Part shown: positions 1-37,378 of the stretch, one piece after another
Position numbering within the stretch: position 1 is the first letter of the stretch
Layout: each line of letters starts with the position of its first letter
Assembly (NCBI GenBank): GCA_051362555.1
Contig: CM120640.1
Location: 15,252,001-15,316,000, forward strand
Direction of reading: 5' to 3'
Length of the DNA stretch: 64,000 nucleotides
Source of the DNA: Lingula anatina
Taxonomy: Eukaryota; Animalia; Brachiopoda
Position numbers and translations under genes: made by a program
Notes under the pieces: generated by a model
The model's database searches: none
Seen by the model: only the letters and a program-made list of their open reading frames with translations
Told to the model about the DNA's origin: nothing

Positions 1-3000
1 GATGGAATCGACACAGACTGCGATGGGGCAGTGGATGAGGAACAGTGTGATGGCGTTGGTAGGTTTATTAATCTGCCTTAAAACATATTTTGGATACCAA
101 ACTTATGCAGACTCTCAACATTATATGCCAATCAAATGCCAAAATTATTTTTGTTTTATACTTATTTCTTTTGTTATTACTTCTAGATAATGATAACGAC
201 GGCCAGATCGATGAAGATTGTGCCGCAGCCCAGGACACAGGTGGCCGGGAGTTCATAGTTATGTACCTAGACAACATAGTCGAAACTCCAAAAGGGTTTG
301 CTCTAGAATTGTTCGTAACAACTTCATATGACGTGCCTGTCAGTGTGAATGTTTCCACCCCGGCATGGAATAGCCCACCCATGATGGAGACCTTCACCAT
401 ACAACCTAGAGAGGTGCGGCTTGTCAATGTTTCTCGCAATCTACGTATGAGCGGCACTTCTATGTCCACCAAGGCCGTGTTGGTGCAGGCAGATAACGAG
501 GTCGTCGTGTACGGTGTCAACAAAGAGCTCTTTTCAAACGATGCTTTCCTGGCATTGCCCACCGATGTCATTGGTCAAGAATACTACACTGTTTCGCATT
601 CACCCCCTGAAACGGCCTGTGTTTTCGGTGTTGCTGGTGTCTATGACGGGACCGTTGTTACAATAACTCTACCCTCTCCCTCTGGCACGGCTGTTTCGGT
701 CAACTACAATGGCGTCGTATATGGAAATGGCAACACTTTTGAGGTGGCTTTGAATCGTTACGATACATTCCAGGTCCAAGATTCTAACAAAGGTGATCTA
801 ACGGGAACCTATATTACTTCAAACCAGCCAGTTGCAGTCTTCAGTGGCAACATTAGAACCAACGTGGGCGCCGGCACCCGATCACGTGATCATCTTGTGG
901 AGCAGATGACGCCAGTGCCGTCATGGGGAACAGAGTTCATCACAGTGCCCACGCCGAACCGCACTGTTGGGGATATAGTCAAAATCGTCGCTAGCTCTGA
1001 TAACACTGTCGTTGAATTAACCGGGCAACCGCAGATTGTGCTTAACAAAGGGCAGTATGCTGAAAGAGTGATCCCGTCTGTTCTCTACACTCGCATTGTT
1101 GCTAATAATCCAATATTGGTTGTTCAGATCGTTTATAGTCAGTTTTCTTCCACTGAACCGGCAGATCCCGCCCTAACAATCATTCCACCCATCCAACAGT
1201 GGGCTTCAGAGTACAACTTTGCTACTACACAGTACAGTGGGGGTGAAACTGGCGGAGACTATACTCACTTTTTTCTGCTGGTAATTCAAAATACGCAGAG
1301 GAATGGTCTGTTGTTTGACGGACAGCCTCTCAGCAACATACAGTGGACAAATGTACCAAACACAGACTATGTAGGTGCAAACTTTGTGGTATCTGGAGGG
1401 GCCCACAGCATCCGCCATGTAGCACGCGATGTTTCTTTCATGGGTCTGTTGTATGGTACCGCAGACAGGGAGAGCTACGGTTTCCCAGTTGGTATGAAGT
1501 TAGCCACAATCACCCAGGTAATAGTTGACCTGTTTTCATGACCCATTAGATAAATTCTGAGAGTGGAAAATGTTTTTCTAATGCTACTTTTGATGAAAAT
1601 CACATCCACCACATACTCGTGCTTATCTTAATATTAAATAACAGTAATCATACATTTGTTGCTATTTTCCTTTCCAGCCGTCCACATCAACTGTCAGTAC
1701 AACTCCGAGCACAACTCTTGTCACGACAACTACAACGGTCACAACGACCACCACACCTACTTCGACCACGCCAACTACAACCACGCCGACCACGACCACA
1801 CCCACCACGACCACACCGACCACGACCACACCCACCACGACAACTACCTCGGCGACCTCGACAACAGCCAGCACCACAAGGGCTGTTACATCCACGCCTT
1901 CGACAAGTAATTTTTTATTTCTTTACCTTAAAACAATTTGATAATGTCCTTCAGGTAAATATAGACATATTTTCACCTACTCTATGAGCTTTAAGAATAG
2001 TAATCGTAAATGACTAATCGCCATTATTATGCCTTTTTTACTTAAATCTCGCCTTTTGCATTGTTGGTGTTTCAAAATCTGAGTGCATTTTTTCCTTTAT
2101 TTGTAGCTATTGCCTACAGTGCTGGTAGAGAGTTTGTGGTTGTGTTCATGGAAAACAGTGTGGAAAATCCAGCGGGTTACGACTTAGAGCTTTTTATTAC
2201 CAGTGTAAATAACGAGGCTGTCCAAGTGAACGTGACCACACCCATGTTTAACAGTCCGAGCGTGACCCTCAGTGAGAGGCTGAGCGCCGGAGAGGTTAAG
2301 AAGTTTAACATAAGCAATGCTCTGAGGATGACCGGTACATCAAAAGGCTCGAAAGCAATACGCATACAAGCATCTGGAGACGTAGTTGTCTATGGCGTCA
2401 ACAAAGAATTGTTTTCCAATGATGGTTTCCTTGCCCTCCCGCTAAGTACTCTTGGAGGTCTTTACTATGCCGTTAGTTATGGACCTCCTGAAATAGCGAC
2501 CCAATTTGCCCTTGCTGCACCAGAAGATAATACAGTTGTCACAATCACTTTCCCAGCAAATAGTGGTGTCAGCCTTACATACGATGGACTTACATATACA
2601 GGAGGTGAAACTTTGCAGGTGACACTCAATAGATATGAAACCTTCCAAGTACAGAGCACTTCAGGTGATCTCACGGGTACCCGCGTGTCTTCGAATAAAA
2701 ACATTGCAATGTTCAGCGGCAACATCAGAACCAACGTAGGGAGTGGAATATCACGCGATCATTTGGTTGAACAGTTGCCTCCTGTGACGTCGTGGGGACA
2801 AGAATTCAATACTATTCCTATACCCGGACGCACAATCGGAGACCATTTCAGAATCATAGCCGGTCGCGACAACACTGTAGTTACAATTACAGGTCTTCCA
2901 ACAGTGACATTATCTAAAGCTGGGGATTTTGTTGCACTGAATATTTCTTCCGATAGCTACACCCACATTGTTGCCAATAAGCCAATCCTTGTGGCGCAAA

Positions 3001-6000
3001 TAGTTAAGAGCCAAGTCAGTGCCACAACGGCTGAGGTGGCAGATCCCGCCATGATCCTAATCCCACCTGTAGAGCAGTATGCCACACGTTACCTTTTTGC
3101 CACTCCCAAATACTCGGGTGGCGTAGTAGGGGGAGATTATACTAACTACTTCATGATCATGGTAGCAGACGACCAAAAGGACGGTCTTAGATTAGATGGC
3201 TCCAGTTTGCCAAACCCAACTTGGGTAACAGTACCTGGAACTAGTTACGCTGGCACGGCTGTCAACGTCGGCGATGGACAGCATGTGTTAGAACATGTCA
3301 CAGGGAATGTCCCATTCATGGGCTTGCTGTATGGAACTGCAGATAGAGAAACCTATGGCTTCCCAGTAGGAATGTTGTTGGCTAAATTGCAACCGGTGAG
3401 TACAGGTATATGTACACAATACAGATAAGACCACTTACAGTTTTTAGAATACATTTAATCCGAACGCCTGAGATACATACATAAATTTACTTTAAAGAGT
3501 AGTGTAATAGGAATAAAAAGTACTTTGTTAACCAAACTCAATTCAAAACCATCATTTTGAGAAACTGGTTAATAAAAGTAAATCGTTATCTCATACAGGC
3601 ATGTGATAAACCGGCACAAACACCAGGCGATGGTCTGGACAACGACTGCGATGGAACTATTGACGAGGAGAAATGCAACGGCCAAGGTATGTTGACAATG
3701 GAAGTGTATTGAAAACGCGTTATCAAGACAAAAACATTGAAACATGTTCAAATATCAGAATTTATGCTAGTGAGTAATTAAAAAATTGATATTCTGTTGA
3801 ATGAGGCAACTATTCAGGCACGGCCTTGGCAGTATCAAACGTCCAATTTGAAAGATAAATTATAAAGTTATAAGTTTCAAATATTTGCATCCTTTATTTA
3901 TCAATTTCATTTGAATTTGACATCAGTTTGTTTTTTTTTTTCTAACAGATGAGGACGGAGATGGGCTAATTGACGAAGATTGCCAAGGTAAATTTCAAAT
4001 GTATTTACATTAGCTGCTTTAAAAACAGAACAAAAAGAAGAAAGACAGTCATAAACAAATGTGGTATGAAAAATTAGTTTTGTTCAAATTTCACATTGCA
4101 TTTTAGGCATCCAAGATACTGGTGGCCGTGAGTTCTTGGTTATGTACATGGCTAACATAGTGGAGGCCCCACAAAACTTCCCACTTGAACTTTTCATTAC
4201 TACGTCTCACAACGTACCAGTAAATGTGAACATCACTACACCGAGATGGAACAACCCATCTTTGTCCGTTCAAGCCACCATCAACCCAAGGGAGGTTCAG
4301 AAATTCAACCTTTCCCATACACTGCGCATGGACGGCACCAGCATGTCCACTAAAGCAGTCCTCATCGAATCCGACTTTGAAATTGTTGTCTACGGTGTGA
4401 ACAAAGAGCTTTTCTCTGATGATGCCTTCCTGGCCATACCGGTGGATTCTTTGGGCACCGATTATTACACTATTTCCTATTCCCCACCAGAGATTATGAC
4501 CGAGTTTGGAATTGTTGGTATTTACAACAATACAGAGGTGACTATCGTGTTTCCATCCCCAGCGGATGTTCCTGTTAGTGTTACGTATGGTGGTGTTACC
4601 TATAGTAATGGTCAGACGCTGCGCCTGAATATGAACAGGTATGATACATTCCAAGCACAAAGTGTGGGTGATCTTACAGGTACCAGAATCCTATCCAGTC
4701 AGAAGGTTGCCGTGTTTAGCGGAAATGTCAGAACGAACATCGGTGCTGGCACCAAGTCTCGTGACCATCTCGTAGAACAGATCCCTCCAGTGCAATCTTG
4801 GGGAAAAGAATTTGCTACGGTGCCAATCCCTGGCAGAACAACTGGAGACATTTTCAGAATAGTAGCTTCAAAGGCCAATACTCAAGTGACCACAACTCGT
4901 GGAAACCCAGCAGTCACAGAAACGTTCACTGTGAACAGAGGTGAATACCTTCAGCTCCGCATCCCATCAACTGACTACATGCACATCATGGCTAGTGAGC
5001 CAGTTCTCGTTACACAGTTTGTATACAGCCAAGAGAGTGAAAGTACCCAAGAGGTTGCTGACCCATCCATGATAATCATTCCTCCCGTTGAACAGTATGC
5101 TTTCGAATATAACTTTGCAACTACAGAATACAGTGGAGGCGTAACCGGCGGAGATTACAGACATTTCTTTATGCTGGTTGTTGATAATGCCAATAAGGAT
5201 GGGTTTACACTGGACGGAGCACCCCTTTCATCAAACAGAGCCTTGATATGGAACCCCATTGGCAACACCAATTATATGGGAACCGTGTTTGAAGTACCTG
5301 GAGGTGCCCATACAATGAGACATACAACTGGCACTGTGTCCTTTATGGGGTTGTTGTATGGAACTGCAGACAGAGAGAGCTACGGATTCCCTATCGGAAT
5401 GAATCTAGGGTCTATTCAGCCAGTAAGTGAGGACAAATTCAGTATAAATCTTTCGAGATACAGAATAGATTGTTAAGGTTGAATTTAATTACTGATGGAA
5501 ATTTATTGAAAACTTTTGTTTTACTCTCAGATTATTTCCCACGTAACTGTTTGGCAAGTTATTGTTCTTCATTGAATTGCAGACCTGCAATCAACCAGCC
5601 CAAAGACCCGGTGATGGTATAGATAATGACTGTGATAATTTGATTGATGAAGAGGATTGTGATGGCATTGGTAGGTTTATCTGAATTGACAACTGTGTCG
5701 AGAAAATTTATTATCAACAACCTATTTCATACTTCAATTTTTTCTTTTCCTTTTTTTAAATTTAACGATGTTCATGTAGTCAGTTTTAAATTGGCACATA
5801 CAAAATGCTTACTGACAATGTCTCTTTTCATTTTCAGACGACGACTCGGATGGCTTGATAGATGAAGATTGTCAAGGTAATATCAACTGTTTTTCCTTAA
5901 TCTTAGTTTTTTTTAGAACATAAAACGATGATTAGCTTTATCGGTACTCTTCGTATGTTTACAGTTTATCAATATATAACACCTTTTCGTATACATGTAG

Positions 6001-9000
6001 GTATCCAAGATACTGGAGGCCGTGAGTTCTTGGTTATGTACATGGCTAACATAGTGGAGGCCCCACAAAACTTCCCACTTGAACTCTTCATTACTACGTC
6101 TCACAACGTACCAGTAAACGTAAACATCACTACACCGAGATGGAACAACCCATCTTTGTCCCTTCAAGCCACCATCAACCCAAGGGAGGTTCAGAAATTC
6201 AACCTTTCACATACACTGCGCATGGACGGCACCAGCATGTCTACTAAAGCAGTCCTCATCGAATCCGACTTTGAGGTTGTTGTCTACGGTGTTAACAAAG
6301 AGCTTTTCTCCGATGATGCCTTCCTGGCCATACCAGTGGATTCTTTGGGCACCGATTATTACACTATTTCCTATTCCCCACCAGAGATAATGACAGAGTT
6401 TGGAATCGTTGGTATTTACAACAATACAGAGGTGACTATCGTGTTTCCATCCCCAGCGGATACTCCTGTTAGTGTTACGTATGATGGCGTTACCTATGGT
6501 AATGGTCAGACGCTGCGTCTGAATATGAACAGGTATGATACATTCCAAGCACAAAGTGTGGGTGATCTTACAGGTACCAGAATCCTATCCAGTCAGAAGG
6601 TTGCCGTGTTCAGCGGAAATGTCAGAACGAACATCGGTGCTGGCACCAAGTCTCGTGACCATCTCGTAGAACAGATCCCTCCAGTGCAATCTTGGGGAAA
6701 AGAATTTGCCACGGTGCCAATCCCTGGCAGAACAACTGGAGACATTTTCAGAATAGTAGCTTCAAAGGCCAATACTCAAGTGACCACAACTCGTGGAAAC
6801 CCAGCAGTCACAGAAGCGTTCACAGTGAACAGAGGTGAATACCTTCAGCTCCGCATCCCATCAACTGACTACATGCACATCATGGCTAGTGAGCCAGTTC
6901 TCGTTACACAGTTTGTATACAGCCAAGAGAGTGAAAGTACCCAAGAGGTTGCTGACCCATCCATGATAATCATTCCTCCCGTTGAACAGTATGCTTTCGA
7001 ATATAACTTTGCAACTACAGAATACAGTGGAGGCGTAACCGGCGGAGATTACAGACATTTCTTTATGCTGGTTGTTGATAATGCCAATAAGGATGGGTTT
7101 ACACTGGACGGAGCACCCCTTTCATCAAACAGAGCCTTGATATGGAACCCCATTGGCAACACCAATTATATGGGAACCGTGTTTGAAGTACCTGGAGGTG
7201 CCCATACAATTAGGCATACAACTGGCACTGTGTCCTTTATGGGGTTGTTGTATGGAACTGCAGACAGAGAGAGCTACGGATTCCCCATCGGAATGAATCT
7301 AGGGTCTATTCAGCCAGTAAGTAAGATAAAATAGAGTTCAACTCCCTGAAGTAAAAGTTTGATAATCGACACCCTTGAATAAATTTGGTTAAAGCTTTTT
7401 ATAAGATTTTATTTACTAAAACCCTAATAAATAATCTATCATGTTCCTATTTGATAAAGGATTGTTTCTAATCGAATTACAGACATGCAGTCAACCAGCC
7501 CAAACACCCGGTGATGGTATTGACAATGACTGTGATAATGTGATTGATGAAGAGGAATGCAATGGCATTGGTAGGTTTGTCTGAATGGACAATGATGCCG
7601 AGATGATTTATTATCAACAGCCTATTACATACGTCAGTTTTCTGTTACTTTTTTCTCAAACAAAGTTGATGTAGTCATTTCGAATGGGCACATACAAAAG
7701 ACCTACTAAAAGTGTATCTGTTCGTTTTCAGATGACGACTCGGATGGCTTGATAGATGAAGATTGTCAAGGTAATATCAATTGTTTTTTTTTCTTTAATT
7801 ATAGTTTCATTTTTTTTGATAGAACATATAAGGTTGATTAGATTTCTTAATACTCTTTACATGCCTACAGTTTATCATTAAAAGTAATGCTTTTTCTTTA
7901 AGGTATCCAAGATACTGGAGGTCGTGAGTTCTTGGTTATGTACATGGCTAACATAGTGGAGAACCCTCAAAACTTCCCGCTTGAACTTTTCATTACCACG
8001 TCTCACAACGTACCAGTAAATGTGAACATCACTACGCCGAGATGGAACAACCCATCTGTGTCATTTCAAGCCACCATCAACCCAAGGGAGGTCCAAAAAT
8101 TTAACCTCTCACATACACTGCGCATGGATGGCACAAGCATGTCCACTAAAGCAGTTCTGATCGAATCTGACTTTGAGGTTGTTGTGTATGGTGTGAACAA
8201 AGAGCTTTTCTCCGATGATGCCTTCCTGGCCATACCAGTGGATTCTTTGGGAACCGATTATTACACCGTTTCCTATTCCCCTCCAGAGATTATGACTGAG
8301 TTTGGAATCGTTGGTATTTACAACAATACAGAAGTGACTATCGAATTTCCATCCCCAGCGGATACTCCTGTTAGTGTTACGTATGATGGCGTGACTTATG
8401 GTAATGGTCAGGCGCTGCGTTTGAATATGAACAGGTATGATACATTCCAAGCACAAAGTGTGGGTGATCTTACAGGTACCAGAATCATGTCCAGTCAGAA
8501 GGTTGCCGTGTTCAGCGGAAATGTCAGAACGAACATCGGTGCTGGCACTAAATCTCGTGACCATCTCGTAGAACAGATCCCTCCAGTGCAATCTTGGGGA
8601 AAAGAATTTGCCACGGTGCCAATTCCTGGCAGGACAACCGGAGACATTTTCAGAATAGTAGCTTCAAATGCCAATACACAAGTGACCACAACTCGTGGAA
8701 ACCCACCAGTCAATGAAACTCAAACTATAAATAGTGGTGAATACCTTCAGCTCCGCATCCCATCCACTGACTACATGCACATCATGGCTAGTGAGCCTGT
8801 TCTCGTTACACAGTTTGTATACAGCCAAGAGAGTGAAAGTACCCAAGAGGTTGCAGATCCGTCCATGGTCATCATTCCTCCTGTTGAACAATATGCCTTC
8901 GAATATAACTTTGCCACTACAGAATACAGTGGAGGCGTAACCGGCGGAGACTACAGACATTACTTCCTACTTGTAAGTCCAGAGGCGAGTAAAGACGGTT

Positions 9001-12000
9001 TTCTACTCGATAATTCGACATTATCAACTGCAAAAGCACTCACCTGGAATCGAATAGGGAACAGCAACTACATGGGAACTGTTTTCGAGGTGGCCGGTGG
9101 AGCTCATACCATACGACACACTACAGGCACGGTATCCTTCATGGGCTTGCTATACGGATCTGCAGACAGAGAAAGCTACGCATTCCCCATCGGTATGAGA
9201 TTAGCATCTCTGCTAACAACGGTAAGGTCCAAGTTCATTAAGCATCCCCCAACTTATTTTTTGCAGTTCCTGTTGTGATCTTTTGTGTTATTGCTGTGCA
9301 CGGTCTTCAAACACGCACTTTTCAATGGCTTATTTTTGTTGCTTTCTTTGATGTCAGTTGTTTTTTTCTTTTGGTTATTGTCATTTTACATTAACTTTAT
9401 CTGATACATTGTTTCACAAAAAAAAAAAAAAAAAAAATTGCCATCTCATTGAGAGTGGCTATGCCTTATGGTTGACATGATTATGAACTTTTGGATGTAC
9501 TAGCAGTTAACATTTACTCTGGTCACTCTGGGATGTCAGTTCCAGTATTTTTGTGAAACAATCGCTATATATCAACACACTGGGAGCTTATTGCTTCAGT
9601 GTGGGAGCAACGTTGTGTTTGTAAATTTGAATGTTCAAGCCCCATGTGAAAGATTTCTTTGCTTCACTTACTATTACAACAGTAACAATAACGCTTAACT
9701 GGGGTTTGTTGCTGGTGTTGCTTTATTGACTGTTTCATAATTGGCCACTGTTTGATGTTGTTTTTCAATAGAGCACGGTGGCGCCTGGGGTGACAACTAC
9801 AACGACCACAACAATAACTCCTCCAACTTCCCTCACAACTACAACACCCACTACTTCAACTGCTACTAATACTACGCCATCGTCTACAACCAAAACTACT
9901 GCTGCTACAATTACTTCGGCCTCTACCACCACAACCCCGACTACAACTACTACAGCTCCTACAACTGTCACTTCCACTACTACTCCTACCCCTACAACTA
10001 CCACTGACATTCTAACCACTGTAACCAGAATCCCAACTACCACAACCCCGACTACTACTTCACAAACATCCACCACGATCGCAATTAATACCACAACAGC
10101 ACCTTTCATAACAACAGAGATAACAACGGTAAGTCTCATAGGGAGTTCAGCTTCCTTCCATTTACATTCTAACCTCTTCACAGCTACCTAATTAACACTA
10201 TAAGAAATTTGACCTTTAGAAGGGCTTTTCACATTTCGTATATTCTGAAATTGTGTATTTTTAGGAACAATGCGATTTTCAACTATTTTTAAGCGATAAT
10301 TTTGAATTTGATGCAATGAATTATCGACAAAAGTAACGCCTTACAAAAAATTATATACGTCGCAAAGGTTTTGAGAACTGCATCCAATCTGTTGATGTTC
10401 ATGTTGATGTCTAGTTTCAATTTTGTTTGAACATTTTAGCCGTCAACTACAGCTGCGCCAGTCACTACCTCAACATTGCCGACTTCAACAACGACGCAGG
10501 TATGTTATACTTTTTAAACAAAGATAGTTTAGGTTGTATTGTGGTTTTACCCTCGCAAAATGTTGTTTGACTTTAAATCCATTTAATATATCATCGCCGT
10601 TAGATGTACCTAAAAGATGAAAGAGGTAATAGTGCTTAATGTGTGTGATATTTTAAGGCATCGCATCCGTCACTCTCTTTCAGCCAACAACAACGACCAC
10701 TACTACAGTTTCAACCACCACTACTGCATCAACTACGACAACAACGACTCAGGTGAGAATACTATGATAGTTCAGTATTTCGATGAGAAAGTGTTGAAAC
10801 TTCTTTAGACGTAACAACAATACTTATCGGCATGTTAAGAAAAATGAAGTACCAAAAACAAAGTATTTTGAAATTGCCTTGCTGTAAGTCAAAACATTTC
10901 TTGCCATTTTAGCCTACCACTACTACCACGACCGTTGCAACCACTACGGCTACCCCATCGACGACGACACCGGTAAACATTTTCATATATCATCATTTTA
11001 ATTAGATTTTATGAAGATGTTGAGATCATTTGAAATGTCATATAATAATGATATTATGCACTTTGAAACTAAATTTATATACAACATAAGTGTAGCATAC
11101 CCTTTTACTTTTGTATGCTCGTGCATTTAATTATGCAATTTTTGTTTTTCAAAAATGGCACCGGCATTAAATTTGTACATTTTATTGAACATCTTCTCCA
11201 GGCCTGTGCAGCACCTGCCATGGTACCGGGTGATGGGGTTGATAACGACTGCGACACCTCGGTAGATGAAGAAGAATGCGATGGAATCGGTGATTACATA
11301 CTCTTTAGTCTTTTCTAAAAAAATTCTGGATTTATGTTTTTCATATCTTACTAGAAATTCTGCTGTCAATGGTTCCATGAGTTAAGAATCATAGTATAAC
11401 TAATAGGAAAAGTAATGAATCCGGTCAAAAGAATGGCATTTGATACGTTATATCAAATATCTCAATAGAAGCATTTGGTGACTTAAAATTTGCTTTGTCT
11501 GTAGATAATGATGGTGACGGGAAAGTAGATGAAGATTGCAGGGAGTTCCAGGACACAGGTGGTAAAGAATTCTTCATTGTCTACATGGACAATGTTGTTG
11601 AAAACGAGCAAGGCTTTGACTTGGAACTGTTCATCACGTCATCCTACAACATCCCCGTCCAGGTAAACGTCACCTCACCAAAATGGACACAGCCTTATGT
11701 GTCCATTTCGGACACCATTAGCCCTCAGGAGGTGAAGAAGTTCAGCTTCTCCAAGGATCTGCGCCAGAAAGGAACTGGCATGTCCACTAAAGCCATACAT
11801 GTCAGTGCAAGCAGTGCCGTGGTCGTTTATGGTGTCAACAAGGAGCTGTTTTCGGACGACGCTTTCTTAGCTTTGCCTGTAGACACCCTGGGAAGGGAGT
11901 ATTACACCGTCTCCTACTCTCCTCCTAATATCGCCACTCAGTTTGCTATAGTTGGCGTGTTCGACGGCACTGAGGTGGTTATTCGTTTCCCCAATCCTTC

Positions 12001-23908: not shown

Positions 23909-25150
23909 AGAAGTCGTTACAACGTAAATCTTGACGTACTCGTGCTACGTAGACGAAACCTCATGACGTCATTTGTCAAGGAGACGTCGTTTGTCATGTT
24001 ACTGCGGGACTGGTAATATTTTATTCTACTTTTGCTGTGCAAACAAATATTATCACATATATTGGCATATTTTCACATTAAATATCTGATACAGACGTAT
24101 TTGATGGCTAGTAAAGTTTAGTCGGATATCTTAAAATGTGCAGACGTCGTGTTTTAAATTGTTACTCGTTTCTCGTGCGGGCCCACTTAAGAAACAAGGC
24201 TGTTGAATTCTTATTCATTTGAATTTGAATAAACGTCTTTTTCATATAGTAATATCTCATACATTTTTAATTTCATAACTGGATCAAATTCAGTCCTTTA
24301 GGCCTAGTCGCTTTCAATTTCATTTGAATGCTAATAAGCTTCAATATTTTGACGTGTTCAGAAGTGAATATTCATGCTTGAGTGCTCAACGCGTGCATTC
24401 TTGCTCACTAAGAGCCCCTTGAAAAGACAAATAAAACTAAAGCGGCAACGCCATTGTTATTTACCTCGAATGGAATTCTATGCTTACATACGGGGACTTC
24501 GGCGACCCACGGCACAGTAAAGCGTCTCTGTATGTGGATGTCAGGTGAAAAAGCTGGAAGGCTGTCCAGGATAGAAGAGAACCGAAGGGGAAAAGTACAG
24601 TTCTACATGGCACGTTGATAATTACTTCGCGAACAGCTCTCTGATTATCAAGGTAAATAATGTTTTGCATACGACAGTTTGCAAGAATGGCCTGTCAGAT
24701 TGATCGTCGTCAACTTCGAGCCTTTAGCAGGTTCAGTTGCTTGTCTTGGTCGATATTGACGATGTCAGCCCTTCACGTTTGTAGTATAAAACATTCTAGT
24801 ATATTTCATTTCAAAATTCAGGTTTTTGCATACAAAATACAAATATATAAAAGCTCGGTCTTCACCTGAGCGTGCTAGGTCTATTGAGTTATGTACTGCG
24901 CCCTTTAAAGTGTAGCCTATTGTTAACATTATTGAAAGCTTTTTATTGTTAACTTTCACCAAGACGTATAATGTTCCCTTTTGTCCTAACCAATCGATAT
25001 TTGGAGAAAATGTTAACTTATGACTGAAACGCGAACCGGCATTCATAAAATTCACACTTTATCAAAAAGGTTCTATAATATAGATGCGAATCTTTAAAAC
25101 GTGGTAACAAAGGAATTTTCTTTAGGGTCTTTTCTTCATACTCGAACTTA

Positions 25151-25408
25151 CGCCCCATACTCATAGACGCCATCGGTCTACGTGGATCGGCCCAACTCTG
25201 CAGGGACTCTCGCCGACTGCAATCAGCGTAACTGAATGACACGCCTCCTCCTGGCGTTATGTAGAATACAGAGAAGCTGGTGATTGTAGGAGTATGGAGG
25301 AGGAGGAGGCGTGTAATTCAGTAGGCCTAAAGCTGTTTGCACTTAGTGAGAGCCCCTGCAGAGTTGGGTCGATCCACATTGACCAATGGTGTGTATTGGA
25401 ATGGGGTC
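25151..25408. mobile_element. Palindromic MITE, Tourist/PIF-Harbinger-like
   Basis: Long imperfect inverted repeats (ggtctacgtggatcggcccaactctgcagggactctc / gagagcccctgcagagttgggtcgatccacattgacc; tgaatgacacgcctcctcct / aggaggaggcgtgtaattca), flanked by TTA at 25148-25150 and 25409-25411. Confidence 0.7.
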
Positions 25409-26280: not shown

Positions 26281-29200
26281 ATGGTGCGCTGCAGTTGTCA
26301 TGTGTTTGTAGCGTTGGTTGTAACTCTGGTGTTCATTCCTGGTGTTGCAGCTCAGACAGGTATATTTTACATTTACTTCGTAAGCAGTGTTTTTTTTTTT
26401 TTTTTTTTTTCAAAACGAGTTATTTAATTTCTCATACTGTTGTTGGAGGCAGGGCTTTTATCAACCACGCCGGTCATAAGGGCAGAAAGTAGAATGTGTG
26501 TGTGTGTGATGGGGGGGGGGGGGGGGGGGGGGGGGAAGGGGGGGAGGGGGGGAGGGGGGCGCAAAGGTAATCGCTCGGTCCTCTTCTCCCTCCACAGTGG
26601 CTGATGTTTTTTTTTAAAGGTTTTCTCCCTCACTTAATATTTGCATCTTACTCATCTGTATTTCATTTTTAGAAGAAATCAATTTTTCGTATTATCCCCC
26701 ACTCTAAAAAACTTGACGTGACCAGAAGAATAAGAGAAACATGAAATTAAACTCTACTCGTCCGTTATGCAATACATAATTATTCTAACCACACCTTATC
26801 CAACATGGAGGACAATGATAAAAAGTAAGCAATAAACATTGCTGACAACTAAACTACAGGGTTACCACTTAATATGGAATATTTTTTATCATTGTTATTT
26901 TTTAGTGCTGATTAAATTTTTTTTGGCTTGAGTCATTAAAAAAGTATGTCACTGAGTGATAATAACATCCAGTCTTCTGTTGTGAGAAATTTTGGTCAAT
27001 AATATTAAATCTGACATAAGATGCCATTCAAAAGAAAGGAACACCCCCAGAAAACCATATCAACAGTTTGATGTCAGTATAAACTTTAAGATAAGATATT
27101 AAAGAAAATGATAGCCTCCGGACAGTGATATGTTACACAGTCAAAGAACTCACTACAGTAAATCATGAAAAGTCAGTAATTGCGGGTATGACCTCCAGCA
27201 GCCGCTTGCAGCGCCCTCATCCTACATGGCATATCCTGTGACACGTTTTTTAGAGTTTGGGTGGGGATATCATTCCACGCAGTGATATTTGCCTGTCGCA
27301 GTTCATCACTATTTACCGGCCGAGGACCATAGCTATTAATTCTGTGAGTTACTTCCGCCCACAGATTTTCAATTGGGTTCATATCTGGAGAGTTTGCAGG
27401 CCAGGGCAGTTGCTGAACCCATTGGTTTTGAAGAAAAACAGTGATTCTGCGGCCTCGATGTGGGGTTGCGCAGTCGTCTTGGTACACAAAGTTGTTCCTG
27501 AAGATGAATCTTACCAATCGAAGCATTGTTTGCTGTAGATCGTCTCTGTAGGAATCCTGGATGAGGTTGCCTCCTAGAAAAACCAACTGGTTCTGGGCAC
27601 CGACATGAAATGCTCCCCAAACAGAGACGTTACCATCCCCTGGTTGCACCCTAGGCAGTACACAATCATTGTTTTATGCCCCTCGTACACGTCGGTGGAC
27701 ACGGGTTCGATGATCAACCCTAAAAAATCCATATCTGGCCTTATCACTGAAAACAACATGATTCCAGTGTTTTGGCTGCAAACGCACGTGGTCCCCAGCC
27801 CTTTGCAGACGTCGCTGTATATGACCTGCTGTTAACAGTGGTCTCCCTACTGGCCTTCGTGCAAAATAACCGGCTTGCAGAAATCTCTTGTTCACGTGGG
27901 ACCTTGAAACGGGCGTTTGAATGACATTCTGCCTCTCTTTTCTGAGGACACTGGTTGTCTTTGTACGACCAGCACGGCGTCCACTAAGGAGAAGGCGATC
28001 CTGTCTTCTTGGTGTGATACGCAGACACCCTGGTCGAGGTATTGGAGTAGGTGCCCCTGTAGCAGCATTTCTTTAGAGGACTTCACAAACGGTTCCTGAT
28101 AAATGTTGAATTACCTGGCAATGGCTGTCCGTTTCTGGCCATTTTCTCTGAGAGCAAGAATCCTATAGTAAGCTGCGTTGCCTTGTTGTCGTACCATATC
28201 TTCACTAAGGTACCTGTCAAGTTTCAGAGCGATCCCCTTGTTGCTTCTCTAAACACGCTCCAAAGATTGACAAAACCCATGCGTTTTTATACAAGGGCAG
28301 AAATTGCCGAAAAGACCACCCCTCATATTTCTGACCATAGAACATGCAACTGCATGCATCAATTGTTTCGAGAGTTGTGTGGTAATTAGGTAACACACCT
28401 GGCTACACATGGAGTGACACCTCAGCTTTGGATTTAAAGTAGTTAGAGAGAAATTAAATATTTTGTAGAAAATTTATTCGCCAAAAAATAATATTCCATA
28501 TTAAGTGGTAACCCTGTATGTCAGGAAAATCACAGTATTTGTTCAGACAAAATGTACTCTCGTCCTTTTTTCAACGTCGCGCCTTTTGATTCCTTCTCTA
28601 GTGGCTCAGTTAACTTGTAAAAACAATACATTTTATTAGCTTCACTCACTCCAAAATTTTATTATCCGCAGGGGACAACGCTGGTCGACAGTTTGTCTTA
28701 GCGTACATGGAGAACAAGGTAGAAGTTCCCACAAATGAGCCTCTGGAACTACACGTAGCTACTCAAAAATCGAACGTGCGGGTAACAGTATCAGCTCCCA
28801 AATTCACAGGGACTACTGTGAATAGCAGTGTATACATGCAGAGTGAGGATGTGCGTATCATCACTATCCCAAGTTCCATGAGGATGGAAGGATCGAGAAT
28901 AGAAAACAAAGCCATCCTGGTTGAAGCCACTGATGATGTCATAGTGTACGGAATTAACAGAGAGCCTTTTTCAAACGATGGGTTTCTGGCTCTTCCTGTC
29001 AGTGCTCTGGGACGTGATTATTACGTCACAACGTACAGCCCGCCCACTATCATGGCTGAGATTGGAGTTGTTGCGGTCGAAGACAGCACGACACTGACAA
29101 TATCATTACCAACACACACTGATGGCCTCTCTGTTGCTTTCAATGGGCAGACGTACGCTAAAGGACAGGAAATACAGACAACAATCTCTGCATTCCAAAC

Positions 29201-32200
29201 CCTCCAGCTTCAAAGTGTCTCCGATTTGACGGGCACGCGAATACGATCGAATAAAAACGTAGCCGTTTTCTGTGGAAACGTCCGTACAAGCGTCGGGGTA
29301 GGGGACTCTCGGGACCATTTGGTGGAGCAGATCCCCCCTGTCACGTCGTGGGGCTACACATTTGCAGTGGTGCCAGTGCCGGGAAGAACGCTCATCGGTG
29401 ACTTGATCCAGATAATCTCAAGGGATAGCAACACGCGTGTTGAGATACGGGAGGCAGGGGCTACGATGCGCGTTCTTGATTTCAGTAGAGCTGGCGAAAG
29501 CCAGAATATTACAACATCCCCAAACGGCTACATATCCATTACCTCTACCGGTGGCCCTATATTAGTCACTCAGATAATTTACAGCCAGTTGTCAATGAGC
29601 GAGCTATCCGACCCGGCCATGATAATTGTCCCGCCAATGCAACAGTACAAAACCAGTTATGCTTTTGCAACGCCAACGGTAGCCGATAGAGGATACACCA
29701 ACTACGTCTTAATCGCTGTCCATAAAAGTGCCAAGGACGCCATTTTGCATAATAACGAGTGGCTCCAGCAATCTAACGTTGTTCTTTGGGAAAGCATTCC
29801 TGGAACTGAGTTAGTAGGAGCCAGTTTCAACATATCGTCTGGCCGACACTTTCTGTGGCATTTCACGTACACTACCCCGTTCATGCTGATACTGTACGGA
29901 GCCGCAGACAAGGAGTCCTACGCATTCCCTGCTGGTATGAAAACCGGAGCAGTTCAGCAGCAACAAGTAAGAGAAAACCAGCGAAATTTTATCTAAGCAC
30001 ATAAGATTATTTCAGCATTTCATGACCTTTATACACATACTTAGGCCTACGTGTCTCTTGTTTGTTCTTTACATACACAATCTTCACATTTGGAAAGTTC
30101 CATCATAAATGCAGTCCAAAGCTTATATTAAAATTTACCAAGCAGGGTTTGCTTTTGGTCTTTGAATATAGGTTTCTTCTGATCTTTTTCAGACATGCGT
30201 GGCACCACCAATGGTACCGGGGGATTCGGTGGATAACGATTGTGATGGACAGATGAATGAAGAGAAGTGTGACAAAATGGGTAAAATTTTCTATATATAG
30301 ATCTTAGCAGATACACATACACTGTGTATATTGTTAATGTCTCATGTTGAGTAAAGATAATATTTGGGTTCGGCTATAAGATTTTTGGGTTATAACTGTA
30401 AGACAAATGTATGAATTTGCTTATGAAACATTATGATTTAACTCTTTCTTTCGCGATATGCTTTATTCTTGCACATGTGAATTTCTGTGATATATTTTAA
30501 TAGATAACGATGGTGACGGGAGAGTGGACGAAGATTGTTCTGGTACGTATCCAGAGCTTTGCTCATAAATAAACCGAGAATATCTACTCCGAAATTTAAG
30601 TATTCAATATTTCTTTATATAATCTTTTTACAGAGACTGAAACAACTTAGTTTTAGTGCATTAACTTATCAATAGTTGTTGTGTATTCAACTTGTGTTAC
30701 AGTTGCACTGGATTCAAAGGGTTCGGACTTTCTGGTTATGTATCTTAACAACGTCGTACAGGAATTCACGGACCCTTACGACCTGGAGTTATTCATAGCG
30801 ACAAGTTCCAACCAGCCGGTCCAGGTGGACATCACTACACCCAGATACGCTTTTCCTTACGTGAAAAGTTCCGAAACCGTCAACCCGAACGAAGTCATCA
30901 GATTTCCCATTTCCCCGGAACTCCGAATGGAAGGAACAGACGTTTCCACCAAAGCAATCCAAGTTACAGCGACAGGGACAGTGGCTGTGTACGGCGTGAA
31001 TAAAAAGAAGTTTTCAGCGGACGCTTTCTTGGCCTTTCCAACCGACACATTAGGGACTGAGTATTACACTGTGAGTTATGCCCCTCCTACAATTGCAAGT
31101 GAGTTTGGTATTGTGGGCGTGCAAGATGGAACCTCTGTGACAATAGAACTGCCTTCTTCATCCCGATCTTCAATCAGCCTAAATCTTGGTGGTCGCACGT
31201 ACAACAACGGTGACAGATTCAGTCTTATTCTGAATAGATATGACACTCTGCATATTCAGAATTCGGCTGACCTTACCGGAACCCGTATTACGTCCTCTCA
31301 GAAGATAGCCGTGTTCAGTGGGAACGTCAGAACCAACATAGGCATTGGCACGTCTCGGGATCACCTTTCTGAGCAGATCCCTCCCGTTTCGGCGTGGGGA
31401 AAAGAGTTTGCAACGGTCCCCATTCCCCGTAGAACGACTGGAGATTTCTTCCGCATCATTGCCGCAAGAGACAACACTAAAATATTGCTGAGGTACATTG
31501 AAAGTGGCGGGGTCACCATCCAAAGGGAATTCATCGACATTCAGACCGCCGGGGATTTCGTAGAAAGAGTGGTGCCATCCAATGATTATTTATATCTTAT
31601 TGCCAACGAGCCGGTCCTGATGGTCCAGTTTGTTTACAGTCAAATATCTGACACTGAGACAGCAGACCCATCTATGATAATCGTCCCTCCCATGGAACAG
31701 TATGCCTTCCAGTATAGTTTCAGCACCCCTATATATTCTGGGGGAGTGGTTGGTGGGGATTACACACACTATGTGCTAATGGTGGCGCCTGCGGATCAAA
31801 TTGATGGGATTCTGCTCGATAGTGAAAGACTAAGTATCAGTAAACCTGGACTTGTATGGACACCCATAGCCGACACCACGTACTCGGGGACGTATTTTAA
31901 TGTTTCAAGCGGTGTGCATCACATTCGCCATAGCTCAAGCGGTGTCGCCATGATGGGAATTTTGTATGGCAAAGCAGACAGAGAGAGCTACGGTTTACCA
32001 GTGGGGATGCAGTGTGAAAACATTGCTTTTGTAAGTATGTCTGTGATAAAATTACTTCTTGAACTCAAGGTAAAAGAACAATCTAATTATGTTTTTCAAA
32101 CAAAGATAAAAGATAATTTAACCGTTTTCTTCTTCTACCCAACATTCATTCCTCCGAATCATTCTTCCCGTGCAATAGGTATATTTTACGTTATATATGA

Positions 32201-35200
32201 TAATTATTGTGCCCATATGGATAATCACAATGTTGTTTCCTTTCAGAGTTGCAACGCTCCACACATGGTAAATGGGGATGGACATGACAACGACTGTGAT
32301 GGGAGAGTGGATGAGGAATATTGCGATGGAATTGGTAAAATTTGACGTTTGCTTATCTTCATATCAGTTTTTTTGTTTACATATATTTCATTAACATTTA
32401 AGTAAGAGAAATGTTGCCAATCTTAATCATTCTGCTTCTCTGTGGTTAGATTTCAAGAGTATTTTATTGGTAGAATTTAAGATGTTTTATTGGCCTCATT
32501 ACAGATAATGATAACGACGGAAAAAAGGACGAAGACTGTACAGGTAATGAGTTCAAAGAAGCAATTATAAGACAAGCTGGATATATCTCACTACAAGCGT
32601 AACATTTAAGGAGCACTTTGGGTGTGCTTTAAGGCTTATAAAGCGAAAACCTAGGAAGTGTGTGGGAGCCTATGGCTCCCCTCACGGACTTCAAGATTTG
32701 GGATGTTTATGCCTTATTATTTAGCTTTTTAGAAGTGTAACGAATGGTAACTCTTTCTCTCAACACTGTTTCTTTGTGATAGTCAGCATATTACTGGATG
32801 CACTGTTGTACCCACAAAGCATTTGCCATCAGTAAGATTTTTTCATTGCGTTTTGTCACTTCTAAGCAACCTTGCGTTCACTATAATGATTATTGAAGTC
32901 TTATAAAGCTGAACTTTTTATTTCATCCAGAAACTTTGGACTCGAGTGGGAGAGAATTTGTCATAATGTTTATGGAAAACTCTGTTGAAGACCCAGTGAA
33001 TAGCCCCCTAGAGATTTACATCGCAAACACATATCCAACCGTTACCGCAACAGTCAACGTGACAACGCCATTATTTAGCCCTGCAATGGACGAAAGCGTC
33101 ACCGTCAGCCCTACTGAAATGAAAAGGTTGACTATGGCCAGGACCATTCAGACGACTGGAACAGGTATAGCTAACACGGCAATTCTCGTACAAGCTACCC
33201 AAGACGTTAATGTCTACACGGTCAACAAGGAGAAATATTCAACTGACGGCTACCTCGCCTTTCCAACAGACGTTTTGGGAACGAAATACTTTGCAGTGTG
33301 TTATTATTCCACAGGAAGCAGCAACAATTGCCAGTTGGGTATTGCAGCGCTGTCAGTTACTGTGGATGTTCAGATCGAAATGCCGAGAGGCCGCAGTGTT
33401 CCGTTAACTGTGACGTATAACGGGTACACATACAGAAGCGGAGACGTGATAAATCTGCGATTGACCAGATACCAAACGTTCCAGGGACAATTCAGTGGTG
33501 ATCTGACTGGTGCCGAGATTACCGCGACCCAGCCCATTGCAGTGTTCAGTGGGAATATTAGAACCACTGTGGGGAATGAATCTAGCTACCGTGACCATCT
33601 GGTTGAACAGATGCCTCCTGTTGAAACGTGGGGACAAGAGTTCTTCGCTGTTCCATCTCCAAGGCAAACCAATGGGGACATATTTCGAATAGTAGCAAGT
33701 GACCCGGCAACCCGCATTTCAATATCAGGATTTGGATTGACCCAAGAAGAGGTTACGATAGGGACCAGTGACTTTGTGGAAAGATCCTTCCCTTCTGGTA
33801 CATTTGCTCATATTTCAAGTTCTAAGCCAGTCATGGTGGTGCAGTTCACCAGGGGTCAAGCTGTTACCAGTGATGTAGGAGATCCGGCAATGGTTCTCGT
33901 ACCGCCTGTCAAACAATGGCAGTCAGAATACACGGTCACGTCTCCGCAGCAAGCCGGTACTGGTGCAGCATACACCAATTACGTCATGGTAGTCGCAGGA
34001 AATGCAGATAAGGACAACATAAAAATCGATGGCCAGACTTTGGCATCTCTAAGTTCTGGTCTGTCTGGCTCCATAAAGCGCCGTTCTCTTAGTTCTCCTG
34101 TGCAGTGGACTGAAATTCCAGGAACTACGTACGCAGGGACTGTCTTCCAGCTACCTGCTAATGCGCAGAGAGTCACCCATTCTGGAGACTTCATGGCTAT
34201 GGTGTACAGTGCAAGTGACAAAGAGAGCGTTGCCATGGCAGCTGGAACACGGCTGAAGACTTTGATACAACCAAGTAAGTCTTTCCATTAAGTATTGCGA
34301 TTTATTTAGTTTATTTGCTTTCTAAATTACTGATTGTGACAATATTGGTATCACCAAGTATTATATTCCACACTTCTTTCTCTTTACCTTATTACTGTTA
34401 TTCATGCTAATGAGTGGTTTTATATTTGGTATTCTCTTGAACTGAGATCAGAGATTTCATTTAGTAAAAATATTTTTTTCTTTCATTGTGGTTTTGTGTA
34501 ATGATGATGAAAAAGGAAATTGTTTCGAAAATCATGCTTCATAGGTAGAACACACTTTCGTAACGATTCCATTTTAATAATAATATCTTCAATCGTCCAT
34601 TTATCTAGTTAACGGAAATTGGGGAGCATGGGGAGAATGGGCCCCTTGTTCTGCGTCCTGCGATGGAGGGAGTTACTCAAGAAGACGTGCGTGTAATGAC
34701 CCCGCCCCTAGCAATGGCGGGGGAAATTGTGTTGGCAGCGATACTCACGTCCAAGTTTGTAACGATGTTCCGTGCACAACCAGTAAGTGGTTATTAAGAT
34801 TTTGACTGATTTTGCTTAATGACTATCGTGATCTCTTTTCGTGGTATTAGTGCTCCTGAATTGTTTTGTGATGGAGGGTGATATGGAACGTTCAATGCAT
34901 TAAGAGTACGGTGGGCTGGGCGTTGTTCACATGTAGTGTTTATGGAGTACATTTGTCGTTTGTAGCGATCGTTGGACCTCCTGGACCGCAAGGACCACCT
35001 GGACCTAAAGGTGAAAAAGGTGCCCAGGGCCCTGCAGGACCCCCAGGGCCAAAAGGACAACGCGGGCAGCAGGGACCGGAAGGGCCAACAGTACGTTATA
35101 GTTTATTGTGTGCCCATGGGGCGCCACAGCTGAAATGCATTACTTTTAGGCACGCAATAATCATTAGGCCATTATATACCAGAAATTTAATTTCCCTGAA

Positions 35201-37378
35201 CATGTTAACGCTTTTCCCTGAACCATCAAGGTATAGAAAGTAGCATTTCCAAGTCTTATTCCCCGCATTATTTCAACAGGGTCCTACTGGTGCTCAGGGC
35301 CCGGCAGGTATCCAAGGCCCTCAAGGAGTATCTGGGGTTCCAGGGGACACAGGTCCCAAAGGTGACAAAGGTGTGAGAGGCCCAGACGGTCCAGTTGGTC
35401 TTACCGGACCCACGGGTCCACAAGGCATAACTGGACCTACAGGATCTACAGGAGCCAAAGGGGACAAGGGCGAGCAGGGAGTGAAGGGGTCGAAAGGCGA
35501 CAGAGGTGCAACTGGTATTCAGGGCATTATAGGTCCAACGGGCGCCAAAGGCGACCAAGGTGTTCAAGGACTCCAAGGATTAAAGGGCGATATGGGAGTA
35601 GCGGGGCCCATGGGACCTATGGGTCCCCCAGGAAATAAGGGTTAGTGCGTATTTGAATGTGTAAATATTAATAAAAAAGTTTTTCGGCCCTTTTTTATAA
35701 CCATAGTTTTAATAAGTTTCAAACATAATGATATCAATTTTTTTCAATAATCATTTGAAAATGGTCATTATTAAGATAATAAAAATGTGTAATGTGCACC
35801 ACAGCGGAAATCCTATCTTACAATTTTTATTTAATTTTTCAGAGGTGGACGAATGCCAGACTAATAAGGGAGGTTGCAGTCACACCTGTATGAACTCCTA
35901 CCTGTCCTATCGCTGTGTATGTGACGCCGGGTATCAGCTGAACGAAGACAAGCATTCTTGTGCCGGTGAGGGAAAGCCTGTTGTCAATCACATTTAGTTG
36001 TTTCGTCAATATTGAACCGGTGTATATAACATTAATGAAATACTTGTTCGGACTCGAGCATATTTAAGTTTCAAGTGTGCTATTTTATTATAGATTAAAA
36101 AAAGGGTCATGCCAAAATAGCGTCTGCTTGAACTTTTTAAGGCTGCTATCAAAAAAAGAAAGTGCATTTTCCATTTACATAAATTTACATGGATTTGAAT
36201 ATTACCAGCGCCTCCTTTTTTCTACCACCTGATGTTGTCGTTATTGATGTTTTGTCAATCATTTTAGACGTGGACGAGTGTGGCAATGACAATGGCGGCT
36301 GTGACCAGTTGTGTTACGACGCAGTAGGCACCTACGTCTGCGCGTGCCGGACTGGGTTCAGACTGAGCCCCGACAGACACAGCTGTGAAGGTACTATTAC
36401 TAAATAATGTATTATTAAGAAAGGGGGTTGAAAGCAAATAATAATAACAGATCAATAATAATAAGAAAAAATAGAAATCAAAATAAATGAATATAAAGTT
36501 TAAAACATTTATGTCAGCCATGGCTGGATCTGTATCGTTGAATGTATTACATAGTGCGGGTGCTGTATTGAAAAGCTGTGTCCGTAAGTGATTTCAAGAA
36601 CTTGTTGTATTTTATGTGTTCTATCTCAGATGTTGATGAGTGTGCTGTCAATAATGGCGGGTGTAATTCAACACAAAAATGCGTCAACACTTTGGGGAGC
36701 CGAAGTTGCGTGATGACCATTTCGTCGTCTGTTGACTCCTTGGCACAATCGCTGCAGCTGAAGGTCACAGGTAAGTAATCATTCGAAATATCTCATTCTC
36801 CACTGTCTACAAAATCATACTTATTCATGAGTTTCAACATACCAAGCAGCCTCTCCCCATAAAAATGATTTGATGGACAGTCTTGATTCCATGTCAGGTA
36901 AATATAGAATAGCAATCTGTTATTCTTTTCCAGTGTAGGGCTGTTGTCGCAAACTGCGACAACAGCCCTACACTGGAAAAGAATATTAAATCGCCCCAAA
37001 GGGTCCTCAGGTGTTGTATAACAGAAACAAAAGGAAAATCTTTTCTCTGTAGTAGTACACTGATTTTGTACTCTTGTTCCAGAATTAACGACACTCTCGG
37101 AAACCATGTCTCAGGTTGTGAAGGACCAGACGGCCGCTCAATCGTCTGCTCAGACCGGCAACTGTGGCTATGATGCTACACTAGTGAATGGTTACCTCAT
37201 CATCGGCATTATTATATGGCTGATTGTGGTCACCTTAGTTCTACTGGGACTAGTTATATATCTGATTTACAAGAGGGGAAGAGACAAGAAATGGGAGAAA
37301 ACGCAGGAAAAACTCTCAAGAGAATATTCATATTCCAGAAATTCGCCTTCGATGTTTTCTGCAGTGAAAGCATATTAA
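26281..37378 (+). CDS. Gene B (complete, ~1880 aa): signal peptide, 3 FCGBP-N domains, 2 DxDxDG linkers, TSP1, collagen, 3 EGF-like units, TM, short tail
   Basis: Exons 26281-26359 ([26 protein letters not shown], signal-peptide-like), 28672-29966, 30193-30280, 30504-30542, 30703-32030, 32247-32334, 32505-32543, 32931-34274, 34609-34782, 34966-35090, 35280-35640, 35843-35965, 36268-36390, 36630-36770, 37083-37378; total 5643 nt, phases compatible. Confidence 0.87.
26509..26559 (+). repeat. Poly-G / G-tract cluster (G-quadruplex-prone) in gene B intron 1
   Basis: Long G homopolymer followed by further G runs separated by A residues. Confidence 0.7.
26857..28516 (-). mobile_element. Tc1/mariner (DD34E) DNA transposon, full length with decayed transposase
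   Basis: 27-bp perfect TIRs cagggttaccacttaatatggaatatt; TA target duplication at 26855-26856 and 28517-28518; minus-strand transposase fragments (about 28197-27173) [28 protein letters not shown] with 34 residues between the second D and E; broken across frames. Confidence 0.93.
34609..34782 (+). CDS. Gene B thrombospondin type-1 (TSP1) repeat exon, missed by the ORF track
   Basis: [56 protein letters not shown]: WxxWxxW, CS.SC and RxR motifs; phase 1-1. Confidence 0.92.
34966..35640 (+). CDS. Gene B collagen triple-helix domain (2 exons, 53 Gly-X-Y triplets)
   Basis: Exon 34966-35090 (13 triplets) plus exon 35280-35640 (40 triplets), uninterrupted. Confidence 0.9.
36921..36985. repeat. 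Perfect 31-bp-arm hairpin in the last intron of gene B
   Basis: tattcttttccagtgtagggctgttgtcgca - aac - tgcgacaacagccctacactggaaaagaata. Confidence 0.92.

Follow-up and report, generated by a model that had tools for sequence, protein, structure and literature searches.

The MACIT-type membrane collagens of animals (collagens XIII, XXIII, and XXV and C. elegans COL-99) are type II proteins whose helices are interrupted and whose C-terminal motif is conserved, and they fold from a membrane-proximal site at the N terminus (PMC4678570). An N-terminally anchored collagen-lectin is known from a choanoflagellate (bioRxiv 2021.10.08.463732), and the streptococcal proteins Scl1 and Scl2 have a lollipop layout with a cell wall anchor (PMC5005324). 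For the brachiopod Lingula, Luo et al. counted 17 (17 to 22) EGF+collagen genes in 2015 and treated those of the shell as secreted (PMC4595640). The FCGBP_N domain was defined by Lang et al., who noted its varied architectures in invertebrates and regarded the proteins as secreted (PMC4948705), and the PRITs, which carry the IgGFcBD repeated in tandem, are secreted proteins that arose in amphibians (PMC11237159). Here we describe two genes of Lingula anatina, termed A and B, that place arrays of FCGBP-N domains on a membrane-anchored collagen. They were found in a 64,000-nucleotide stretch of DNA (assembly GCA_051362555.1, contig CM120640.1, positions 15,252,001 to 15,316,000), which as a whole is referred to as the window.

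Both genes lie on the + strand and encode, in this order, an FCGBP-N array, a spacer, collagen, three EGF-like units, a stalk, a transmembrane (TM) helix, and a tail. Exons were picked by eye from the window sequence, and the resulting chains were then verified by script: every intron is bordered by GT-AG, phases are compatible, and there are no internal stops. Six-frame reading of positions 1 to 34300 gave ten long open reading frames on the + strand, each of which corresponds to an FCGBP-N exon. Pfam IgGFc_binding (PF17517) matched all 10 of these exons with E values of 7e-57 to 5e-68 and scores of 193 to 230 bits, compared to a curated cutoff of 25.6. Among the exons tested, matches to the TSP_1, Collagen, and EGF families were obtained as well. 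A domain check of this kind had been proposed with the original prediction, which had been made from the sequence alone. There are three FCGBP-N domains (FN1 to FN3) in B and seven (FN1 to FN7) in A, the latter being at least seven because the 5' end of A lies outside the window. The collagen comprises exactly 53 unbroken Gly-X-Y triplets per gene, spread over three exons in A and two in B, and the spacer ahead of it is a mucin stretch in A and a TSP1 unit in B. Introns are mostly 120 to 630 nucleotides (nt) long. The domain order that the original prediction had claimed for both genes was thus recovered by the exon chains, by Pfam, and, for B, by the RefSeq model. Its three EGF-like units are all present, two of them full and the third with only 4 Cys in both genes. 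The uniform repetition of domain plus Asp/Cys linker that it had proposed did not hold: Thr/Ser-rich mucin exons occur at three places in A (60 to 76% Ser/Thr), and the Asp/Cys module is missing behind FN3 of B as well as behind two domains of A, FN1 and FN7. We are highly confident of the architecture of A and B as described here. Both genes are exon-shuffled assemblies of known parts, and the novel element is the collagen rod in type I orientation.

Gene B (LOC106163541; 26281 to 37378, + strand) has 15 coding exons and encodes 1880 amino acids (aa). RefSeq XP_013396611 (1900 aa, "uncharacterized") is identical at 1872 of these 1880 residues, with 8 substitutions, and agrees in domain order; it carries 20 extra N-terminal residues, the domain chain being otherwise equal. 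The window lacks the in-frame ATG that serves as the upstream start in the RefSeq model and has an in-frame stop ahead, so that translation of B likely begins at the signal-like exon, at 26281. This exon (26281 to 26359), a predicted signal-peptide exon by hydropathy only, gives B a hydrophobic N terminus (peak, 2.36), in line with the claim of the original prediction. The FCGBP-N region (28672 to 34274) consists of domains 1 (28672 to 29966), 2 (30703 to 32030), and 3 (32931 to 34274), identified by Pfam, with 88-nt and 39-nt Asp/Cys exons between them; the third head is a 100% match to a Lingula anatina RefSeq protein. It is followed by the TSP1 exon (34609 to 34782; Pfam; RNA joint 34782>34966, 3 reads), the two collagen exons (34966 to 35640; Pfam and exon chain), EGF 1, EGF 2, and the 4-Cys EGF 3 with the start of the stalk (35843 to 36770; Pfam; RNA joint 36390>36630, 8 reads), and the last exon (37083 to 37378), which contains the stalk end, a single Cys, the TM helix (37199 to 37267), the basic tail, and the stop. 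A 72-nt candidate stalk exon at 36939 to 37010 is probably no exon: RefSeq skips it, and it was removed from the chain because it is frameshifted in a duplicate 13 kb downstream whose neighboring exons have kept their frame. The third head contains an insertion (about 34060 to 34095) with a K-R-R cluster, a possible convertase site, and similar clusters are present in other Lingula FCGBP-N proteins.

Gene A (1 to 19552, + strand) is cut at its 5' side by the window start; its script-checked chain comprises 31 exons and 3993 aa. No database protein with more than 55% identity was found among those fetched, in searches that covered 780 to 5000 aa and limited candidates, which is not proof of absence. 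A single exon (187 to 1517; Pfam; RNA joint 1517>1678) encodes an Asp/Cys half-module and FCGBP-N 1, followed by a mucin exon with 76% Ser/Thr (1678 to 1906; exon chain and composition) and FCGBP-N 2 (2107 to 3395; Pfam; RNA joint 3395>3599). Three recent tandem units, each with 88-nt and 39-nt Asp/Cys exons and then an FCGBP-N domain, occupy 3599 to 9221 (RNA joint 7570>7732); they carry FCGBP-N 3 (4107 to 5422), 4 (6001 to 7316), and 5 (7903 to 9221), all found by Pfam, and are 88 to 89% alike at the DNA level. Next are four mucin exons of 357, 60, 69, and 60 nt (9772 to 10972; RNA joints 9221>10440, 10499>10684, and 10752>10913), of which the 357-nt exon was skipped in the RNA reads seen (joint 9221>10440). 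Asp/Cys exons and FCGBP-N 6 (11505 to 12847) and 7 (14492 to 15753) fill 11202 to 15753 (Pfam; RNA joint 15753>15957). The mucin spacer ahead of the collagen (15957 to 16128) precedes the three collagen exons (16339 to 17357; RNA joints 16472>16647, 16827>17196, and 17357>17659). EGF 1 (17659 to 17781) and EGF 2 (18049 to 18177; RNA joint 18177>18492), both found by Pfam, are followed by the 4-Cys EGF 3 with the stalk start (18492 to 18632; RNA joint 18632>18935), a stalk exon (18935 to 19000; RNA joint 19000>19284), and the last exon (19284 to 19552) with the stalk end, a single Cys, the TM helix (19370 to 19438), the basic tail, and the stop. One Asp/Cys exon (13847 to 13882) is the sole match of 26 to 82 reads per run in runs X1 to X3; these reads come from another, far more expressed gene that has the module.

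The RNA evidence was drawn from six of nine listed runs of raw reads labeled Lingula anatina (X1, X2, X3, and X8 for A; X1, X3, X4, and X7 for B). Among the joints listed, at least 12 of the 30 introns of A were seen as GT-AG joints, and one further intron was seen as a loose end. Between FN7 and the TM exon, eight of nine junctions were supported, namely, seven joints (FN7>mucin, both collagen-collagen joints, collagen>EGF1, EGF2>EGF3, EGF3>stalk, and stalk>TM) and one loose end of 4 reads at 16337, at the mucin>collagen junction. In the three stranded runs, nearly all first mates mapped to the - strand, as expected for + strand RNA in most stranded libraries. For a joint at 5670>7732 there are two explanations: either one complete repeat unit was skipped, or the read stems from a near-identical copy of the repeat. 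A single transcript, with the FCGBP-N exons and the collagen, EGF, and TM exons in one gene as originally proposed, is supported by reads for the 3' half of A and mostly by the RefSeq model for B.

The membrane topology was read from hydropathy and charge, not with a dedicated predictor. Each gene encodes a single C-terminal hydrophobic helix (hydropathy peaks of 3.54 in A and 3.18 in B) followed by a short basic tail of 37 aa (A) or 36 aa (B). In A, B, and the product of a third Lingula locus, LOC106153735, there are 0 to 1 basic residues in the 15 positions before the helix and 7 to 8 in the 15 behind it. The N termini of B and its paralogs are signal-like stretches, and together these features point to type I topology, as had been predicted. 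A single Cys stands just outside the helix in all three Lingula proteins. Judged by sequence, A and B are probably type I membrane proteins that form trimers; a run of 53 triplets would form a triple helix only as a trimer. The collagen run is rich in Lys, Gln, and Thr and holds 7 to 8 KGD/KGE motifs, which can stabilize collagen helices through salt bridges. The registers of A and B aligned best at a shift of one triplet (34/104, versus 24/106 unshifted), which gives no support for a co-evolved register. A trimer prediction for three copies of B residues 1630 to 1835 gave 0.35, versus 0.29 for the control, and was used neither for nor against. The tails of the Lingula proteins (35 to 37 aa) have no YxxPhi motif; in A, B, P0105, and P0109, a Tyr is found within the last two residues.

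The FCGBP-N head was modeled by AlphaFold2 as an all-beta unit of about 430 residues (pLDDT, 84.6; pTM, 0.86), exceeding the 297 positions of the Pfam model. Searches by sequence found no solved relative (best E value, 0.68), and Foldseek with the head model, run with the whole model of more than 400 residues, gave a best TM-score of 0.16, which does not show a new fold. VIA gave a best Z score of 10.4 to 1nc7 (rmsd of 4.3 over 107 aligned residues of the first subdomain only) and scores below 8 for all others, and these values show no function. The Asp/Cys module has a weak, below-cutoff likeness to Pfam Cu-binding_MopE and likely binds metal and stiffens the joint. It stands behind FCGBP-N in 58 of the best 150 matches of a profile search and, as far as these sequences indicate, is a general companion of FCGBP-N in animals that is not special to A and B.

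A search with the gene B model retrieved the same domain set from two more Lingula loci and one bryozoan. LOC106153735 (13 isoform records, one cluster) follows the order of A and B: its three heads are succeeded by 21 TSP1 units, a collagen rod that again has 53 triplets, EGF units, and the helix. The bryozoan model, Watersipora subatra XP_067936654, also shares this order; its two heads contain gaps, and behind them come a mucin stretch, a collagen run of 155 residues (about 52 triplets) that is broken once, EGF units, and the helix. In LOC106170605 of Lingula the order differs (head, long collagen, EGF, heads, helix), and the helix is unlike that of A and B. The bryozoan TM segment scored 79 with B, 59 with LOC106153735, and 50 with A, compared to a mean of 27.7 and a maximum of 42 for 29 control segments from FCGBP-N proteins. 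This similarity, the shared order, and the rod length suggest that the bryozoan and Lingula proteins share descent. In a domain tree from a quick search (54 rows picked from 249 fetched FCGBP-N proteins), the bryozoan heads group with those of Lingula and three unnamed proteins with a support of 94; as this is below the mark of 95, orthology is not proved, and the quick tree neither proves nor contradicts common descent. P0002, P0227, and P0231 have heads 35 to 53% identical to those in the window together with the Asp/Cys module, and these group with Lingula domains in the tree; P0002 has three heads in tandem.

Collagen was present in 5 of the 249 fetched proteins (four loci: B, LOC106153735, LOC106170605, and the bryozoan one), and a hydrophobic segment stands behind the heads in 50 of the 249, a number that includes isoforms and likely glycosylphosphatidylinositol signals. 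Among the latter are mucin-4-like proteins of amphioxus and a receptor tyrosine kinase of an anemone. FCGBP-N on collagen-free type I membrane proteins is therefore common in animals, and the collagen rod is the rare part. A profile search of 1.84 billion representatives gave 12,568 matches, with a collagen run in none of the best 150; the known Lingula collagen proteins are also absent from these 150, so that this search has little power for architecture. Among the collagen-free proteins, P0037 (LOC106174328) is a Lingula membrane protein with five heads and 35 TSP1 units, P0228 is a Lingula membrane protein with one head and a TM segment, and P0015 (Actinostola) combines FCGBP-N, the Asp/Cys module, SEA, FN3, a TM segment, and a tyrosine kinase, if the model is right. 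P0221, P0224, P0223, and P0250 have 6 to 17 tandem FCGBP-N domains, and one of them, from a catshark, has a C-terminal hydrophobic segment.

Class A scavenger receptors, collectins, and ficolins have a collagen rod, trimeric recognition heads, and a neck coiled coil, a layout that A and B may share, and they differ from A and B in being type II or secreted and in having C-terminal heads with known ligands; the comparison with collectins and ficolins assumes that FCGBP-N binds a ligand. No CTLD, fibrinogen, C1q, or SRCR head was found in Pfam scans of P0001, P0105, and P0109. MACITs are likewise single-pass proteins with a collagenous ectodomain, and a juxtamembrane coiled coil aids their trimerization; A and B differ in that their helix lies at the C terminus, their rod is a single run of 53 triplets without interruption, and they carry EGF units and FCGBP-N heads, and neither type II topology nor interrupted collagenous domains were found in them. 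The Lingula EGF-collagens come from the same species and have collagen followed by EGF, EGF_CA, or FXa_inhibition domains. P0001 likewise unites collagen and EGF-family domains (Pfam Collagen, EGF_CA, cEGF, and FXa_inhibition) in one protein, and A and B are likely among the 17 to 22 genes counted (PMC4595640), although the four shell proteins are shorter and Gly-rich. The searched text and supplement of that paper, figures such as Fig. 6b lying outside the search, contain no link of EGF-collagens to FCGBP-N or to a membrane anchor. The PRITs resemble A in their tandem single-exon IgGFcBDs of about 400 aa split by predicted O-glycosylated repeats (seven domains and three spacers in A) and differ in being secreted and having no collagen, EGF, or TM segment, whereas A and B are brachiopod genes with a C-terminal TM segment; no PRIT was included in the domain tree. 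Vertebrate FCGBP shares the FCGBP_N domain (PF17517) but has one such domain with VWD-C8-TIL units and is secreted, while A and B have a TM segment and Pfam matched no VWD, C8, or TIL in P0001. In Scl1 and Scl2, an N-terminal head, an unbroken collagen stalk, and an anchor at the C-terminal end are found as well, together with an adhesin function that A and B may share; these proteins are bacterial, cell wall anchored, and headed by an unrelated V domain, so that the analogy is one of topology only.

No description of FCGBP-N on a type I membrane collagen was found in the literature searched, which was thin on subscription papers, and within the same scope the five locus and accession identifiers of these genes had no match; this agrees with the original prediction, which had considered the architecture undescribed. 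In the searched supplement text of PMC4948705 (one of two files, figure labels not extracted), "collagen" and "Lingula" occur 0 times. The surprise is lowered by the published Lingula EGF+collagen genes and tandem IgGFcBD proteins and by the frequency of collagen-free type I FCGBP-N proteins, and the weight of the finding is raised by the bryozoan relative.

Our best overall explanation, which we put forward tentatively as falling just short of probable, is that A and B are type I, likely trimeric, multivalent mucus tethers. A cleaved signal peptide would place everything before the helix outside the cell. Three chains would be brought into register near the membrane by the conserved helix (I/V-W-L motif), the single outside Cys, and, in Lingula, the heptad-like stalk, and the triple helix would zip outward from the membrane end. 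The 159 residues would form a rod of about 45 nm, a length that rests on the textbook collagen rise, and would raise above the glycocalyx 9 (B) or at least 21 (A) all-beta heads per trimer, with O-glycosylated or TSP1 stretches as spacing; trimerization and these head numbers, already part of the original prediction, would follow from collagen chemistry. The heads may then bind secreted glycoproteins with avidity and so tether mucus. This role is favored because the tested settings of FCGBP-N are mucus and glue: vertebrate FCGBP is a core mucus protein (PMC11796319), and the glue of frogs is made of secreted proteins in which IgGFcBDs are arranged in tandem with glycosylated spacers (PMC11237159). 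Two Lingula genes with FCGBP as the best match, under identifiers not mapped to A or B, are mantle-high (PMC4595640, supplement). By analogy, the main job of A and B may be that of a mucus tether or adhesin, which we regard as possible rather than probable.

Several points weigh against this explanation. The role of FCGBP-N is called unclear, its ligand is not known, and its IgG binding is disputed (PMC11796319). Pro is rare at the Y position of the collagen (5 to 8 of 53), and the stability of the helix is therefore not assured. By an author-made score, the heptad pattern of the stalk was matched or beaten by 456 (A), 93 (B), and 5 (LOC106153735) of 5000 shuffles; the signal is thus weak in A, modest in B, strong only in LOC106153735, and absent in the bryozoan. 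In the bryozoan model, both heads also contain gaps, a signal peptide is not clearly present, and the charges behind the helix are balanced. In the RNA reads, 17 of the 30 introns of A, including EGF1>EGF2, are unseen among the joints listed. For B, only 2 of 14 junctions were recovered (TSP1>collagen and EGF2>EGF3), and no read in the four runs joins an FCGBP-N exon to TSP1. Read depth was low in all six runs, their tissues are not given, the 5' end of A lies outside the window, and short reads cannot prove one full-length transcript.

The main functional rival to the mucus tether keeps the same structure and sees in A and B pattern-recognition or phagocytic receptors whose heads bind microbial surfaces, as those of scavenger receptors, collectins, and ficolins do. 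A collagen rod with trimeric heads is the design of defense collagens (bioRxiv 2021.10.08.463732), the recent tandem duplication of heads and the exon skipping fit a diversifying receptor, and FCGBP-N tips the anemone receptor tyrosine kinase (P0015); given that Pfam finds no lectin or SRCR domain and that the short Lingula tails have no YxxPhi motif, we consider this role rather unlikely. A and B could also, as members of the Lingula EGF-collagens, anchor cells to the matrix of the shell, periostracum, or pedicle cuticle, a role for which one may cite the 17 EGF+collagen genes, 4 of them in the shell proteome, and the mantle-high FCGBP-like genes (PMC4595640). We hold it to be distinctly unlikely, as the four shell EGF-collagens (774 to 1548 aa, 30 to 31% Gly) are unlike A and B (PMC4595640) and the design is also found in a bryozoan. 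In addition, the supplement to a second shell proteome, in which a control accession occurs 10 times, does not list the accessions of B and its paralogs (PMC13425148), an absence that is weak evidence and does not extend to A, which has no accession.

The membrane form might instead be a precursor whose ectodomain or heads are shed as secreted, PRIT-like mucus or glue. Furin sheds MACITs (PMC4678570), and basic clusters exist in FN3 of B (K-R-R at 1388) and at two sites of LOC106170605; none is present in A, LOC106153735, or the bryozoan protein, and none lies beside the membrane, which makes this reading quite improbable. That the FCGBP-N exons and the collagen, EGF, and TM exons belong to separate genes or were joined by an assembly artifact is very improbable indeed. 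The near-identical repeats and the segmental duplicate in the window and the unseen FN3>TSP1 joint of B speak for it, but reads of A join FN7, mucin, collagen, and EGF1, introns are mostly short with compatible phases, and the same domains are combined in RefSeq models from three loci of Lingula and one of the bryozoan.

The surroundings of the genes contain several further features. The interval between A and B contains a BTB-BACK-Kelch gene (21083 to 23944, - strand) in head-to-head orientation with B. An exact 172-nt direct repeat (21351 to 21691) possibly reflects assembly duplication. Intron 1 of B harbors a Tc1/mariner-type element (26855 to 28518) with 33-nt terminal inverted repeats (97%) and, on the - strand, a broken transposase with HTH_Tnp_Tc3_2 and DDE_3; RNA reads that stem from other copies accumulate on the element, and most reads placed on B belong to this transposon. 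A 5'-truncated duplicate of the B 3' end, from mid-collagen to the stop (48848 to 50747, + strand), has exons 91 to 99% alike and is likely a pseudogene piece. It is part of a segmental duplication (35409 to 45841 versus 48848 to 63969, 72 to 89% alike), both copies of which carry a cytochrome P450 gene along with the B 3' end.

A type I collagen with N-terminal heads must assemble the opposite way to MACITs, and it copies the layout of the bacterial Scl adhesins. FCGBP-N occurs in human mucus, frog glue, and gliding bacteria, and A and B would offer a natural multivalent, membrane-bound display of this domain, in an animal for which a genome and transcriptomes exist, and thus a handle on its ligand. 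It is conceivable, although doubtful, that they belong to a family of type I membrane collagens that is ancient within lophophorates and older than the brachiopod-bryozoan split, with a ruler-like rod of 52 to 53 triplets and a conserved membrane helix through which paralogs can combine in mixed trimers, giving a combinatorial display of FCGBP-N heads. Should the bryozoan gene prove truly orthologous, and should phoronids have the architecture and molluscs and annelids lack it, the architecture would bear on lophophorate relationships. Such a family, if real, would provide Lophophorata with a shared molecular character of a rare kind and would be the first clean system for identifying the FCGBP-N ligand.

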